Assembly (NCBI GenBank): GCA_033764315.1
Contig: JANRJA010000219.1
Location: forward strand, 1-41,834
Length of the DNA: 41,834 nucleotides
Reading direction: 5' to 3'
DNA from: Oculatellaceae cyanobacterium bins.114
GTDB taxonomy: Bacteria; Cyanobacteriota; Cyanobacteriia; Elainellales; Elainellaceae
Part shown: positions 2,077-33,199 of the stretch, in pieces
Numbering within the stretch: the first letter of the stretch is position 1
How the letters are laid out: every line of letters starts with the position of its first letter
Notes under the pieces: model-generated
What the model was told of the DNA's origin: nothing
Seen by the model: the letters and a program-made list of their open reading frames with translations, nothing else
The model's database searches: none
Made by a program: the position numbers and the translations under genes

Positions 2077-3357
2077 CTAAAGTACGTTGCGCTTGAGATA
2101 AGGTTGCAACGCTTCCGGAACACGAATGGTGCCATCCGGTTGCTGATAGTTTTCTAAAATCGCTGACATCGTCCGCCCGATCGCCAATCCAGACCCGTTT
2201 AACGTGTGCACCAGTTGAGTGCCCTTTTTGCCTGCTTCTTTAAATCGAGTATTACCCCGTCGGGCTTGAAAATCGAGGCAATTGGAGCAACTTGAGATCT
2301 CGCGATACTTTCCGGCAGAGGGTAACCACACTTCTAAGTCGTAGGTTTTGGTTGCCGAGAACCCCAAATCACCTGTACACAACTCAATCACCCGATAAGG
2401 CAACTGGAGGGCTTGCAAAATACCTTCGGCACTGTGAGTCAGCGTTTCTAACTCTGCCATTGACGTGTCGGGATGGACAAACTTAAACATCTCGACTTTG
2501 TTGAATTGATGCAAACGAATCAAGCCACGGGTGTCTCGTCCATAACTACCTGCCTCCCGCCGAAAACAGGGGGTGTAGGCGCAGTAATAGAGGGGCAACT
2601 CTTCAAGGGTTAACGTTTCGTCGCGATGAAAGCTGTTGATCGGAACTTCAGCCGTGGGGGTTAACCACAGATCATCGTTTTTGCACTGAAAGCTTTCTTC
2701 TGCAAATTTGGGTAGCTGTCCAGAGGCGGTTAAGGATGCTGTGTTGACCAAAATTGGAGGCAATACTTCGGTGTATCCGGCCTGGATATGCTGGTCGAGC
2801 ATGAATTGAATCAGTGCTCGTTCTAACGCAGCACCTGCTCCAATCAAGGTAACGAAGCGGCTTTGAGCAATTTTAGCCGATCGCTCAAAGTTGAGAATAC
2901 CGAGTTTTTCGCCAATTTCCCAATGTGGCAAAATATCAGGATTTTGAGGGATATATTCATCGCCCCAACGTCTCACCTCAACGTTCTCTTCCTCGCTCTT
3001 GCCAACGGGAGTAGACTCGCTGGGCAGATTGGGAATCGCCAGCAAAATCGTCTCAATTTGAGCCTTCAATTCTTTTTCTTGAGGCTCTAACTCACCCAGT
3101 TGGGCTTTGATCTGGTTGCCCTCATCGCGTAATGCTTGAATCTCTGGATCTTGAGGATTTGTGCCAGATTTCATTTTTTGCCCGACCAGCTTACCGATCT
3201 CATTGCTGCGGGCTTGCAGTTGCGATCGCTCAACCTCTAGCGATCGCTGTTGTTGATCCAGCTCTAAAATCGGCTGCAAATCATACCCACCCCCACGCAA
3301 ATTCAACCGTTCTTGAACCTGCTTTGAGTTTTCGCGGATCAGTTTGAGATCAAGCAC
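2077..3357 (-). CDS. serS: Serine--tRNA ligase
   Basis: MLDLKLIR start (GTG), coiled-coil arm, [35 protein letters not shown] and [12 protein letters not shown] motifs. Confidence 0.98.
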
Positions 3358-28883: not shown

Positions 28884-29489
28884 ATGATTATTGACTGTAA
28901 TGGATTACTCTTTCAACCCTGGATTGGAACTCAATATGGCGAGCAAAGCCTGTTTCAAATTCCAGTGTTAGTAGTTGGAGAATCTAATTATGGTGAGTCT
29001 CGTGGCAGTCGTGAAGAAGACGCAAAGTTTACACATCAACTAATAGAAAACTTTATTAGCCGAACCTGGAATTTGCGTTTTTTCAACAATATCCAACGAT
29101 GTTTTGTTGAAGAGGCTTACTCAATTGAATCAAGACAAAAATTTTGGAGTTCTATTGCATTCTATGATTACATCCAGGCTTGGCTTCCCAGTCATAGTAT
29201 GCCACCTACTGAAGAAATGTGGACTCAGGCAAAACCTGTTTTTGACAGCTTAATTTCACAATTAAAACCCCAATGTGTTCTATTTGTTTGTAAGCGTTTG
29301 TATTATCGTGTAGCTTGCCATTATCCTGCCGAAACGTCTTTTTTAGTTGATGGAATTAAACACGATGCTTGCTTGATCAACGGTGTTCTATCAACCTCTA
29401 TTCGACACCCTTCTCGAAATGGCTTTAGAAACTCTAGAAGTTGTGTTCGCACTTTGTTGAAAACTGTCAATGGAACGACTTGGGTGTAG
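28884..29489 (+). CDS. Uracil-DNA-glycosylase-superfamily-like protein
   Basis: F.PWIG..Y, VLVVGESNY (motif A-like), FW..IAFYDY, LKPQCVLFV, IRHPS (motif B-like); AT-rich DNA. Confidence 0.6.
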   Translation: MIIDCNGLLFQPWIGTQYGEQSLFQIPVLVVGESNYGESRGSREEDAKFTHQLIENFISRTWNLRFFNNIQRCFVEEAYSIESRQKFWSSIAFYDYIQAWLPSHSMPPTEEMWTQAKPVFDSLISQLKPQCVLFVCKRLYYRVACHYPAETSFLVDGIKHDACLINGVLSTSIRHPSRNGFRNSRSCVRTLLKTVNGTTWV

Positions 29490-29533
29490 AGACTTTTGAG
29501 GGCGATCGCCCCCTTAGCCCCCAAAAACACCCA

Positions 29534-29539
29534 TATAAT
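29534..29539 (+). promoter_or_regulatory. Candidate -10 box for the TIR-GUN4 gene
   Basis: Perfect TATAAT about 42 nt upstream of GTG at 29582. Confidence 0.4.
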
Positions 29540-29581
29540 AGGTGCAAGCAGAATTTAGCTTTACTGAAAGAGACTTGTATC

Positions 29582-31030
29582 GTGACAGTAGAAGCCCTCA
29601 AACTGTTTTACTCTTACTCGCATAAAGATGAAGCACTACGGAATGAACTGGGCAACCACTTAAAAATTCTGGAGTACCAAAACTTGATCGCAAGCTGGCA
29701 CGATCGCAAGATTTTGCCAGGGGATGAGTGGGATCACGAGATCACCGTCAATCAAGATACGGCGGATATCATTCTGCTGCTAATTAGCTCCGACTTCATT
29801 GCCTCCAGATATTGCTGGGATATTGAGATTAAACGGGCAATGGAGTTGCACGAATCGGGTCAAGCCTGCGTGGTTCCAGTGATTTTGAGGCGGGCTGACT
29901 GGACAAATGCCCCGTTTAGTAAGCTACAAGCTGTCCCTAAAAACGCTCAGCCTGTAATGAGTTTTTCTGATCGGGATGAGGCTTTCGAGTTCATTACTCA
30001 ACAGATTCGGCAGGTGGCAACAGGGTTAATCGAACGCCGCAGAAAGCTACAAGAACAGCAGCAAAAAGCCGACGCGATCGCCACCTATCGCCAGCAGTTT
30101 GAAGCCTTTGCAGCCGACGGCGAAATTTCAATGGGTGAGCAATTCTTGCTAGACGATTTGCAGCAACAACTGGGGCTAACTGATGCAGACGTACAGGCAA
30201 TCACGCAAAGCATCCTCAACCCGGTTACCGACCCTCAACAGCTAGAACGCTATCGCCAATTTTTTGTCAAAGCGATCGCTCAACACGGCTATCCATTGAG
30301 CGATAAGATTCGGGCTGATCTAAAACTGGTGCAGACCCATCTAAAACTGAGTGACGCGGACATTGCTCAGGTCGAAGCAGCGATCATTGCCCAAAAACAA
30401 GCTGAACAGCAAGAGCAGCAACGGCAAGCAGAAGCTCTTGAACAGCTTGTGGCAAAACCCAACCCGATCCCTCCGCCTCCGACACCCCCTTTAGAGATCC
30501 CCTCGCCTCCGGCACCTACTTTATCGAAGGGAGTTGGGGGGGAGCTTTCCACTGATGACATTCCTCTAGAATCAGAAAAGGGGATTGACTACACCCAACT
30601 GCGCCACTTGCTGAAAGCAGGCGAATGGGAAAAGGCAAACCGTGAAACCTATTGGCGAATGATGGAAGCCGTTGGACGCAAAGCTGTCGGTTTGATTCGA
30701 GAGAACGAATTGCTAAACTTTCCTTGTAAAGACTTGAAGACGATCGATCGCCTCTGGGTGAGATACAGCAATGGCAAGTTTGGCTTTAGTGTGCAAAAGC
30801 AAATCTATGTCGAGTGTGGTGCCAAGTTAGACGGCAAATACCCCAGTGATAAAATTTGGCAAAAGTTCTGCGATCGCGTGGGGTGGTGCGACCTCAAATT
30901 CAATCCCTCAATTTCTCTGGCAGGAGAGTTACCGTGTTTGGTGGGTGTGTTGGTCGTTTCGTTGCGTCCTGTGTTGTGGGTGGTTCTCTCTTCTCTCGCG
31001 CAGCGACTTGTAAACTGTAGCAGACCCTAG
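29582..31030 (+). CDS. TIR domain + two helical repeats + GUN4-like domain protein
   Basis: TIR: LFYSYSHKD, WHDRKILPGDEW, SRYCWDIE. GUN4-like: SEKGIDYTQLRHLLKAGEWEKANRET, FPCKDLKTIDRLW..YSNGKFGFSVQKQIY. Start likely GTG at 29582. Confidence 0.9.
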   Translation: MTVEALKLFYSYSHKDEALRNELGNHLKILEYQNLIASWHDRKILPGDEWDHEITVNQDTADIILLLISSDFIASRYCWDIEIKRAMELHESGQACVVPVILRRADWTNAPFSKLQAVPKNAQPVMSFSDRDEAFEFITQQIRQVATGLIERRRKLQEQQQKADAIATYRQQFEAFAADGEISMGEQFLLDDLQQQLGLTDADVQAITQSILNPVTDPQQLERYRQFFVKAIAQHGYPLSDKIRADLKLVQTHLKLSDADIAQVEAAIIAQKQAEQQEQQRQAEALEQLVAKPNPIPPPPTPPLEIPSPPAPTLSKGVGGELSTDDIPLESEKGIDYTQLRHLLKAGEWEKANRETYWRMMEAVGRKAVGLIRENELLNFPCKDLKTIDRLWVRYSNGKFGFSVQKQIYVECGAKLDGKYPSDKIWQKFCDRVGWCDLKFNPSISLAGELPCLVGVLVVSLRPVLWVVLSSLAQRLVNCSRP

Positions 31031-31162: not shown

Positions 31163-31400
31163 ATGACTATCAAAATCATTGATATCGCTGATGCTCAAAA
31201 TCATTTAGCAGACTTAATTGCTCAGGTTGCACCAGGGGTTGAAATCATTTTGACCCATCAGCAGATTCCACAAGCACGGCTGTTGCCAATTCATCCAGCC
31301 TCTACTCGCCGTAACCCCAGGACTGCATCGGGGCAAAATCACCATCAGTTCAGATTTTGATGCTCCCCTACCCGATCAATTCTGGACGGGTGAACCGTGA
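31163..31400 (+). pseudogene. Frameshifted Phd/YefM-type antitoxin
   Basis: IDIADAQNHLADLIAQV..G.EIIL..PQARLLP. After a +1 shift at ~31313 the typical tail PGLHRGKITISSDFDAPLPDQFWTGEP* ends at TGA 31398-31400. Confidence 0.75.
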
Positions 31401-31450
31401 AACTTCTCTTAGACACTCATGCCTTTATTGGGTGGGATAGCCATCAGTAA
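31397..31450 (+). pseudogene. Truncated VapC/PIN toxin remnant (17 codons)
   Basis: GTGA overlap with the restored antitoxin stop; reads MKLLLDTHAFIGWDSHQ*, the start of a PIN toxin. Confidence 0.75.
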
Positions 31451-31457
31451 GTATTAA

Positions 31458-31694
31458 ATGTTGAAAGTTAGCATTGAAGACGCTGCAAAAGACCTACGAT
31501 CGCTGTTAGAGCGAGTGTCTGGTGGTGAGGCAGTAATTCTGCTTGAACACAACAAGGAAGTCGCTCGTATCATTCCGCCTCCCACTCGTGAGCAGTGGTT
31601 GGCACGCAGACGAACACTGCGCGAATCGCTTCATTCAACTGGAGAAGCCCTCAGTGTAACCATTCTCAAATCACGTCAGGGAGAACGCATTTGA
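31458..31694 (+). CDS. Type II antitoxin, Phd/YefM family (VapB role)
   Basis: VSIEDAAKDLRSLLERVSGGEAVIL....EVARIIP; its stop overlaps the toxin start (TTGA). Confidence 0.85.
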   Translation: MLKVSIEDAAKDLRSLLERVSGGEAVILLEHNKEVARIIPPPTREQWLARRRTLRESLHSTGEALSVTILKSRQGERI

Positions 31695-32131
31695 TCTATC
31701 TCGATACAAGTGTCGTTGCTCCACTTTACTGGTCAGAGGCATTAAGCGATGCTGTTGAGGAGTTAGTGAGAAATGAGGCTGAGTTGGGAATCAGTCAACT
31801 CGTTGAGGTAGAACTGGCTTCGGCTCTATCTCGTCGCGTCAGGATGGGAGAACTTGAGCCAACAGAAGCACAAGCGATCGTAGAACAATTTCAAACCGAT
31901 TTAGACGATGGTTTCTATGTCCTAATTCCCATAGAACCCAACCATTACACTCAAGCACGAGATTGGATTCGCCAATTCTCAACGTCACTACGCACTTTGG
32001 ATGCTTTACATCTGGCGATCGCGGCTACAAATCAGATTCCGCTAGTAACCGCCGATGAGGGATTAATTGACAGCGCAGGGCGGCTTCAGGTTGAAGCGAG
32101 AGCATTAAGACTCGTACCGCAAGAAGAATAA
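31691..32131 (+). CDS. vapC: VapC family PIN-domain toxin
   Basis: Start TTG at 31691: IYLDTS, VEVELASAL, LRTLDALHLA, LVTADE; the PIN acidic residues are present. Confidence 0.9.
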   Translation: MIYLDTSVVAPLYWSEALSDAVEELVRNEAELGISQLVEVELASALSRRVRMGELEPTEAQAIVEQFQTDLDDGFYVLIPIEPNHYTQARDWIRQFSTSLRTLDALHLAIAATNQIPLVTADEGLIDSAGRLQVEARALRLVPQEE

Positions 32132-32209
32132 GATTTGCAGCATTACAATATCGGCAAAGTACACAAATCAGAGTAGGCTTAAAGACTCTCACGTAAGATT
32201 GGATAGTTC

Positions 32210-32839
32210 ATGTTGAAAGTTAGCATTGAGGACGCCGCAAAAGACCTGCGATCGCTCCTAGAGCGTGTCTCAAGCGGCGAGGCCATCGTCCTGATGGATC
32301 AGGATCAAGAAGTTGCTCGTATCATTCCTCCAGAGAGTCATCAAGTCTCTTCTACATCAGTTGACCCAACAAAAGAATCGTCCACCCGTAAAATTCAAAG
32401 CATCTACACCGATGGAGCCTGTTCTGGCAACCCAGGCCCAGGCGGATGGGGCACGGTAGTCTACTTCACCGATGGTACGGTGCACGAGATGGGGGGAGCC
32501 GACTCACAAACGACCAACAACCGCATGGAGATGCAAGCCGCGATCGCCGCTCTCCAGTTCTACAAAGAGTCGGGGCAACCGGAACCGATCACCCTCTACA
32601 CCGACAGCGAGTATGTGATGAAAGGGGCGACACAGTGGATTCAAGGCTGGAAGAAAAAAGGCTGGAAGACAGCGGCAGGTAAGGCTGTCTTGAATCAGGA
32701 CTTGTGGGAAGAGATCGATCGCCTCAACTCTAAGCAAGTCACCTGGAAGTACGTGCGAGGACACAGCGGCAACGTGGGCAATGAGCGGTGTGATGCGATC
32801 GCTCGGAGCTTTTCAATGGGTAAGCCTGTGTTGAATTGA
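32210..32839 (+). CDS. rnhA: Ribonuclease HI with N-terminal Phd/YefM antitoxin-like domain
   Basis: IYTDGACSGNPGPGGWG, TNNRME, YTDS, WKKKGWKT, GHSG..GNERCD; the first 41 aa duplicate the upstream antitoxin. Confidence 0.93.
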   Translation: MLKVSIEDAAKDLRSLLERVSSGEAIVLMDQDQEVARIIPPESHQVSSTSVDPTKESSTRKIQSIYTDGACSGNPGPGGWGTVVYFTDGTVHEMGGADSQTTNNRMEMQAAIAALQFYKESGQPEPITLYTDSEYVMKGATQWIQGWKKKGWKTAAGKAVLNQDLWEEIDRLNSKQVTWKYVRGHSGNVGNERCDAIARSFSMGKPVLN

Positions 32840-32914: not shown

Positions 32915-33199
32915 ATGGTAGATTCAGCGATTCCCCCTCCTTCGATTGATGCGTCAGATAATCTACCACGTGAAGTGAGAGTGGCTCAGCTTCGTAACAT
33001 GGTAGACACGCTGCATATGGCAGATGAGATTGCCAATCGTGGCTATTTAATCACCAGTTCAGAATTGGCAGATTTAATGGATGTGAATGCCAGTGCGGTG
33101 ACTAGTCGTGGTGACAATTGGGTTTGGCGAAATTGGGTCGTCTCGCGCGTGCGGCGTGAGGGTAATCAGATTCTCTGGCAACTAGAAAGAGTCGATTAG
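32915..33199 (+). CDS. Conserved cyanobacterial small protein (HTH-like), rnhA-associated
   Basis: REVRVAQLR..ADEIA..GYLITSSELADLMDV.ASAVTSRG..WRNW; ATG at 32915, TACAAT at 32874. Confidence 0.75.
   Translation: MVDSAIPPPSIDASDNLPREVRVAQLRNMVDTLHMADEIANRGYLITSSELADLMDVNASAVTSRGDNWVWRNWVVSRVRREGNQILWQLERVD

Follow-up and report, generated by a model that had tools for sequence, protein, structure and literature searches.

We analysed a 41,834-nucleotide stretch of the genome of Oculatellaceae cyanobacterium bins.114 (GenBank assembly GCA_033764315.1, contig JANRJA010000219.1, positions 1 to 41,834 of the forward strand; hereafter, the window). It holds an rnhA gene whose 209-residue product joins the catalytic core of ribonuclease (RNase) HI to an N-terminal segment resembling the antitoxin encoded just upstream. 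Below, G000 denotes the genome of the window, G001 that of a sister species of the same genus, and P0002 a fusion protein from a Logan contig. The genes and features with which the argument begins are the following.

32210..32839, + strand: Phd'-linker-RNase HI fusion gene, 209 aa, assigned from its open reading frame (ORF), Pfam, NCBIfam and synteny
32210..32332, + strand: codons 1–41 of the fusion, putative Phd/YefM-type N-terminal dimerisation and DNA-binding module, with family similarity fading by codon 46 (32347)
32333..32392, + strand: codons 42–61, Ser/Thr/Pro/Glu-rich and probably flexible linker, in place of the toxin-binding tail of the antitoxin and of the ancestral rnhA start
32393..32839, + strand: codons 62–209 and stop, RNase HI catalytic core, placed by alignment with E. 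coli RNase HI
32164..32209, + strand: conserved 46-nt block 5' of the fusion ATG (1 mismatch between G000 and G001)
31458..31694, + strand: Phd/YefM-type antitoxin of 78 aa (Pfam PhdYeFM), from a compact family of 78-aa antitoxins
31691..32131, + strand: PIN-domain (VapC-like) toxin of 146 aa with a TTG start (Pfam PIN, E 1.2e-16, 61.9 bits, residues 2–126)

An RNase HI with an antitoxin-like N-terminus

Judging from sequence comparison and structure prediction, the RNase HI of this genus appears to be a three-part protein, with a small module in residues 1–41, a disordered linker of ~20 residues (42–61) and the core in residues 62–209. The core itself reads as an ordinary RNase HI of the E. 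coli type. RNase_H (PF00075) matched residues 64–200 (E 5.7e-45; 153.4 bits against a cut-off of 25.8), the NCBIfam ribonuclease HI equivalog NF001236 scored 180.6 bits against a cut-off of 160, and residues 62–209 aligned to residues 6–143 of E. coli RNase HI (E 6.9e-43). The catalytic carboxylates and histidine of the E. coli enzyme are D10, E48, D70, H124 and D134, and the motifs that bear the catalytic residues in this alignment (TDG, NNRME, TDS, GH and CD) are all retained. In the G000 assembly (90.7% complete), no type-1 RNase H other than the fusion was found.

The segment in front of the core matches the neighbouring antitoxin closely (E 3e-14 for the paralogous match within the genome), and this similarity is not due to chance. 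Over codons 1–41 the two genes encode identical residues at 33/41 positions (80%) and share 96/123 nucleotides; 13 codons differ by synonymous changes only and 8 in the encoded residue. The first 21 codons hold 8 synonymous and 0 non-synonymous differences, and under neutrality the absence of any replacement among 8 changes has P = 1.5e-5. These counts reproduce those of an earlier reading made from the letters alone (the sequence-only reading), which had also proposed that the copy kept the N-terminal domain of the antitoxin without its toxin-binding tail. The limits of the similarity agree: it starts at the ATG and ends after codon 41 (weak to codon 46), and the C-terminal tail motifs of the 78-aa family are absent from the enzyme, with linker and RNase H in their place. 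The regions upstream of the two genes gave essentially no alignment. Pfam PhdYeFM (PF02604) was found on enzyme residues 1–42 (E 4.6e-4, 20.4 bits, profile positions 1–43 of 74) and on residues 1–55 of the antitoxin, the latter at 31.1 bits and above the Pfam cut-off of 29.8.

The TTG start of the PIN gene (31691) overlaps the antitoxin stop codon (31692–31694) by 4 nt, and the cassette at 31458–32131 has, as far as its sequence tells, the layout of a VapBC-like type II toxin–antitoxin (TA) system, that is, an antitoxin and a PIN toxin in one operon with overlapping genes. The sequence-only reading needs one correction here: the toxin partner is the PIN-domain gene at 31691..32131. The fusion gene follows on the same strand after a gap of 78 nt. 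Its own 3' neighbours are a conserved ORF without a family and then a metallo-beta-lactamase-like gene, with no toxin gene downstream.

Misassembly can be discounted as the source of the fusion, since in three metagenome runs, each from a different study, contigs continue from the end of the PIN gene into the start of the fusion (X2 at 32064–32310; X1 and X3 at 32081–32254). The word shares matched in the sequencing runs were small (0.05–0.12), and some bins of the fusion gene were uncovered in some runs.

Distribution of the fusion

We searched G000 and 40 relatives, and all 41 genomes gave an RNase HI match. The match ran across residues 1–209 in G000 and G001 only; elsewhere it began at query residue 36 or later. 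The G001 ortholog (212 aa, 91% identical) occupies the syntenic site, with the same two 3' neighbours (the conserved ORF and the metallo-beta-lactamase-like gene), and P0002, a fusion of 214 aa, is the third known example. A scan of the family with the 46-residue N-terminus (57 genomes, 25 genera) found the fusion in 2/2 genomes of the genus, and free antitoxins of the 78-aa family in 2 of the 55 family genomes outside it.

Wider searches added no further case. A word search of 5.8 billion clusters, restricted to query residues 1–60 and protein lengths of 114–366, returned 3 proteins: that of the window, that of G001 (named ribonuclease HI in its source) and P0002. Residues 1–46 were also searched exhaustively with HMMER against 1.84 billion representatives, which gave 22 matches at E ≤ 1e-3, among which there was no additional Phd–RNase H fusion. 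Short antitoxins of 41–89 aa made up 20 of the 22; one was a 151-aa protein in which the antitoxin sequence runs from an internal Met, so that the annotated start is probably wrong, and one a 3343-aa protein without a scored stretch. The fusion of the window was itself missing from these matches, its 50% cluster evidently being represented by a protein without the segment, and the HMMER search would therefore miss fusions hidden in such clusters. A search of the ESM Atlas with the fusion returned plain RNase H clusters only and no Phd family. A metagenome scan with the 60-aa N-terminus found no relative, and one with alignment A8 gave 21 loci at 36–50% identity, which were ordinary antitoxins (open frames of 77–137 aa), 0 of them fused. 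Literature searches gave no description of a Phd–RNase H fusion.

Two expectations of the sequence-only reading are thus borne out: the fusion is present and not degenerate in relatives, with orthologs in G001 and P0002, and, as neither of the global protein searches nor the literature yielded a further one, a Phd–RNase H fusion appears not to have been described before.

Start codon and selection

Ahead of the RNase H core, in-frame ATG, GTG or TTG codons occur in G000 at codons 1, 2 and 29 only, which confirms the earlier observation that no canonical start follows Met29. In G001 there is none between codon 35 and the core, and P0002 has Thr instead of Met at position 29; therefore, Met1 is the sole start common to all three fusions. 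In relatives outside the genus, a Met lies 1–8 residues before the core, which starts as (I/L)QxIYTDGAC, and there is no Phd segment (18/18). Neither G000 nor G001 has a Met at this ancestral rnhA start position. The native start has thus been lost from this genus, probably through displacement by the copied segment, in which case the extension is translated and translation must begin in the Phd segment, at Met1.

We then turned to selection on the fusion, for which the ortholog pair G000/G001 provides a cleaner test than the paralog comparison, since the latter includes a working antitoxin. The Phd segment (codons 1–41) carried 10 synonymous and 5 non-synonymous differences, corresponding to a synonymous divergence (dS) of 0.46 and a ratio of non-synonymous to synonymous divergence (dN/dS, or omega) of 0.12; the probability of ≤5 non-synonymous changes among 15 under neutrality is 4.8e-4. 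The linker (codons 42–61) had an omega of 1.4 and also varies in length among the fusions, and it differed from the Phd segment by Fisher test at p = 0.006. In the RNase H core (codons 62–209), dS was 0.32 and omega 0.009, which argues for a working RNase HI. Codons 1–21 had 0 replacements in the paralog as well as in the ortholog comparison. On these figures the captured Phd segment is constrained as a protein while the linker drifts. Purifying selection on a genuine fusion, as the sequence-only reading had suggested, is upheld by the omega of 0.12 in the Phd segment versus 1.4 in the linker, together with the two orthologs.

These results bear on the idea that the segment lies outside the enzyme, with translation starting close to the core at a non-canonical codon (the ATT at codon 62, for instance) and the upstream frame being open merely by descent. 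Codons that can serve as rare starts are present at 62 and 65 in G000 and at 65 and 68 in G001. However, an omega of 0.12 at a dS of 0.46 is unexpected for an untranslated remnant, the segment is open and in frame in three lineages despite the change in linker length, and conservation extends over the ATG and the preceding 46 nt. We consider this explanation highly improbable.

A second alternative takes the segment to be a passenger: a rearrangement destroyed the rnhA start, and the 5' end of an antitoxin gene supplies a new start only, with a peptide that adds nothing. Such a history would account for a native Met that is gone in the genus and present in 18/18 other relatives, it fits a genus-restricted fusion, and in the other relatives examined RNase HI works without a domain of this kind. 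A functionless leader should nevertheless drift as the linker does (omega 1.4), whereas the segment has an omega of 0.12 and 0 replacements in codons 1–21; moreover, what was retained is, by structure prediction, exactly one complete foldable module and not an arbitrary piece. Some of this conservation could reflect selection against misfolding of a leader that is translated. On balance, we regard a leader without function as unlikely, albeit not negligibly so.

Homology to G001 is lost upstream of the 46-nt block, and the gene preceding the fusion in G001 lies on the opposite strand. Given this opposite-strand neighbour and the conservation of the block, the fusion very likely has its own promoter, and the block is likely to be that promoter or a 5' leader. 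Scans gave no consensus sigma-70 site within the block and no terminator-like site in the interval between the PIN and fusion genes.

Predicted structure of the N-terminal module

The N-terminal 60 residues were folded alone in AlphaFold2 (AF2) with alignment A6 of 19 family members; a full-length alignment (A5) was left unused, as MAFFT had put the short antitoxins inside the RNase H core. Residues 1–40 were modelled at a predicted local distance difference test score (pLDDT) of 91–93, with a predicted secondary structure of strand beta1 (residues 2–5), a helix (6–21), beta2 (26–30) and beta3 (33–38). Residues 42–60 were predicted to be disordered, at a pLDDT of 48–55 and without secondary structure.

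Foldseek ranked highest the N-terminal domain of VapB46 (6jqy; 43–44 residues, TMt 0.83–0.88, root-mean-square deviation (rmsd) 1.0–1.5 Å, identity 31–32%), the best row having TMt 0.85, rmsd 1.0 Å, 41 columns and E 3.6e-3. The N-terminal DNA-binding domain of phage P1 Phd (4zlx, 47 residues) came next, followed by Phd–operator and YefM–DNA complexes. The small size of the domain makes the Foldseek E-values weak (from 3.6e-3), and the match list is consistent. Both 6jqy and 4zlx are N-terminal domains that were crystallised as stand-alone units, and the model indicates that the enzyme segment is a complete module and not a broken piece.

Prediction of a homodimer of the segment gave an ipSAE of 0.42 (best control, 0.00), with run agreement on at least 93% of contacts and a partner pLDDT of at least 69. 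For comparison, an ipSAE of 0.42 is attained by 20/30 proteins solved as pairs and by 1/23 solved as single chains. The predicted interface comprises residues 6, 9–10, 13–14, 17, 20–21, 28, 30 and 34–41 and would correspond to the canonical beta3–beta3 plus helix-1 contact. VapB proteins dimerise, and VapB dimers can bind promoter DNA without VapC (PMC11160731).

Origin and history of the locus

Counted over the 41 residues, the three fusions share 30–34 identities with the clade of the adjacent antitoxin (P0004 and P0005, of which P0005 is an 87% relative of that antitoxin), 26–29 with P0006 and ≤26 with 19 other family members. By these counts, the adjacent antitoxin gene is the nearest known relative of the enzyme segment. 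The dS between paralogs is 1.28, compared with 0.37–0.46 between orthologs, which places the copy event before the species split, in agreement with the presence of the fusion in all three lineages. The same paralog dS led us to reject recent gene conversion between the antitoxin and enzyme genes as the source of their overall similarity.

The 78-aa antitoxin family is rare, and in G000 it has one free copy, right next to the fusion. From the position of the nearest relative next door and the rarity of the family, we infer an in-place origin, in which the 5' end of the cassette was partly duplicated onto rnhA before the known members of the genus diverged. The cassette would subsequently have been lost in the G001 lineage, if this order of events is right.

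Collinearity of G000 and G001 extends to codon 15 of an older VapC gene and resumes 46–78 nt upstream of the fusion ATG. Between these collinear parts lie the Phd–PIN cassette in G000 and, in G001, the remainder of the old VapC gene and three opposite-strand TA-like genes. Metagenome contigs, 85–99% alike, show both arrangements: X2 bridges 31365–31737, and one X3 contig continues at 31445 in the manner of G001.

Within codons 37–41 (32318–32332), the G000 fusion has Arg37 and Ile38 (32318–32323), as does the neighbouring antitoxin, in contrast to His37 and Leu38 in the G001 and P0002 fusions, and across codons 36–40 a run of 14 nt is identical between the G000 fusion and the antitoxin. This match could stem from a short gene-conversion tract or from selection for a compatible interface.

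Proposed role of the captured module

We favour, with moderate confidence, a model in which the Phd module is an accessory domain that dimerises the enzyme and, through the flexible linker, probably holds duplex nucleic acid. The captured module would pair through beta3–beta3 and helix-1 contacts, as in the Phd, YefM and VapB antitoxins, and would make RNase HI a tethered homodimer with an N-terminal dimer able to hold duplex nucleic acid. It would then serve as an accessory substrate-tethering and avidity domain, like the hybrid-binding domain (HBD) of RNase H1. The homology, the conservation, purifying selection, the loss of the native start, the predicted fold and the missing TA partner in the sister species are results of the analysis; dimerisation in the cell, nucleic-acid binding and an effect on RNase H activity are what we infer. 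A tethering role of this kind would need no TA module.

Several points weigh against this model. The fusion was found in 0/55 of the other family genomes and is confined to one genus, and any benefit it confers must therefore be lineage-specific or small. The PhdYeFM score of the enzyme (20.4 bits) is below the gathering cut-off of 29.8, and the dN/dS of the segment comes from 41 codons and essentially one species pair. As regards the proposed dimer, the homodimer score sits exactly on the pass mark, and since Phd/YefM dimers have already been solved, the pass may be a memory of them, which makes it a likeness and not a proof. No inverted repeat (seed 6, length ≥8) was found upstream of the antitoxin or the fusion gene. 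Lastly, the sole fitting contig from an RNA library (X5) spans 31363–31510, outside the fusion gene.

The sequence-only reading had offered a different role, in which the fusion links RNase HI to the adjacent VapBC system by heterodimerisation, by recruitment or as a decoy. G001 speaks against this as the conserved role. There, the fusion is the sole match to the N-terminal query, there is no antitoxin of the family, and the PIN toxin has no ortholog, its best match being 29% identical at E 1.5e-4. Given that G001 keeps a selected fusion without antitoxin or PIN toxin, a link to the TA system is not the conserved role, and that part of the earlier proposal is not supported.

A coupling of RNase HI to the TA system might still operate where the cassette is present, with the captured domain forming a heterodimer with the adjacent antitoxin and either being recruited to the Phd–PIN complex or its operator or titrating the antitoxin. 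Within G000, the enzyme segment equals the antitoxin at 17/18 predicted interface residues versus 16/23 elsewhere (Fisher p = 0.059), and the shared Arg37 and Ile38 are replaced by His37 and Leu38 in G001, which has no cassette, and in P0002. The TA cassette and the fusion lie next to each other on one strand, with 78 nt and no terminator-like site between them, and the adjacency of PIN and fusion genes recurs in the contigs of three metagenome runs. Set against this, the G001 fusion is under purifying selection without the antitoxin family and without the PIN ortholog, and the TA genes upstream of it are unrelated and on the opposite strand. Upstream of the antitoxin and fusion genes there is no shared operator-like sequence and there are no inverted repeats; moreover, the match at residues 37–38 comes from one genome and is explained equally well by a short conversion tract (the 14-nt run). 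Such coupling therefore seems to us distinctly unlikely.

A long shot is that the captured module still recognises DNA, or pairs with the free antitoxin, and in this way delivers dimeric RNase HI to particular sites or to a VapBC-like complex. If true, the removal of RNA/DNA hybrids would be coupled to a TA switch, and the 17/18 interface match in G000 would be its footprint. To our knowledge, regulatory coupling of an RNase H to a TA system has been described for no RNase H.

Neighbouring genes

Two further features frame the fusion and its cassette.

31163..31451, + strand: decayed older TA pair, consisting of a Phd-type antitoxin and a VapC remnant, recognised by alignment with G001
32915..33199, + strand (frame also given from 32897): conserved cyanobacterial ORF without a family match, given as context outside the Phd fusion

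In the older TA pair, the Phd-type antitoxin (from 31163) carries a +1 frameshift (an extra base) near 31314, and the VapC gene ends after 17 codons (31398–31451); both genes are intact in G001, as ORFs of 78 aa and 128 aa. The extra base at 31314 is missing from the metagenome contigs of X1 and X3. The truncation of the old VapC gene roughly coincides with the point at which homology to G001 stops, immediately before the Phd–PIN cassette. The region between the old TA pair and rnhA looks like a hot spot for the swapping of TA cassettes.

Further upstream, a 529-aa ORF (29441–31030, + strand) has an N-terminal TIR_2 domain (E 1.7e-12) and a C-terminal GUN4-like domain (E 5.4e-30), which is an unusual domain combination. 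The G001 ORF at the counterpart position (513 aa) is similar in its C-terminal part but differs in its N-terminal part. The G001 locus (L022) also has a 255-aa ORF (2442–3209, − strand) between the GUN4-domain gene and the intact Phd–VapC pair; from an impression of its sequence alone, we take this ORF to be transposase-like.

The ORF 3' of rnhA has 51/89 columns invariant in 15 sequences. Of 19 loci of relatives (L003–L021), 8 have it as an in-frame C-terminal extension of RNase HI, in proteins of ~300–374 aa; in 6/19 it is separate but adjacent, and in 5/19 the 1.5-kb flank yielded no copy. It matched no family in Pfam or NCBIfam, a profile search of the PDB gave no match below E 0.9, and the best results of Foldseek against the PDB (E 0.42) and of a wide VIA-align search (Z 5.0) were weak, the Z value being under the usual noise level. 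AF2 modelled the ORF at a pLDDT of 77 in one of five models, and the ESM Atlas returned unnamed cyanobacterial clusters only. The ORF may encode a cyanobacterial partner or accessory domain of RNase HI that has yet to be named.

Comparison with known systems

The finding is a narrow one, covering one genus and three known sequences, and is a curiosity more than an answer to an open question. It does provide a clean and datable example of a core housekeeping enzyme that appears to have taken a domain from a TA neighbour and to have relied on this domain for a start codon ever since; the usual view of TA modules is that they are selfish or defensive elements and not donors of parts for essential genes.

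Compared with bacterial RNase HI of the E. coli type, the fusion protein is alike in its core, its catalytic motifs, its equivalog score and its syntenic rnhA site, and differs in 61 extra N-terminal residues, predicted to form a Phd-fold module and linker, and in the loss of the usual start codon. Compared with the N-terminal domains of Phd/YefM antitoxins (VapB46, 6jqy; phage P1 Phd, 4zlx and 4zm0), it has the same predicted beta-alpha-beta-beta module of ~41–47 residues, likewise predicted to dimerise via beta3 and helix 1. Unlike in the antitoxins, the module in the fusion lacks the tail that neutralises a toxin, is not followed by a toxin gene, forms one polypeptide with an enzyme, and is retained in G001, where the cognate TA pair is missing.

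The closest parallel in layout is RNase H1 of eukaryotes and of Bacillus halodurans, in which an N-terminal HBD, a flexible linker and an RNase H core follow one another. The fusion has the same arrangement of a small N-terminal module, a disordered linker and a core, and by analogy we propose the same tethering role for it. The module differs in having a Phd/YefM fold instead of that of an HBD, and in the expected dimer, which an HBD does not need. No HBD was found in the enzyme, for which a Pfam scan at E ≤ 0.1 lists RNase_H, PhdYeFM, RVT_3 and DUF7393 only. Accessory domain, linker and core form a known layout, in which a Phd/YefM module appears to be new. If the module does dimerise or tether the enzyme, its 41 residues and the linker would be a compact natural design for a dimeric RNase HI, and the fusion would represent an independently evolved bacterial counterpart of the RNase H1 hybrid-binding domain.

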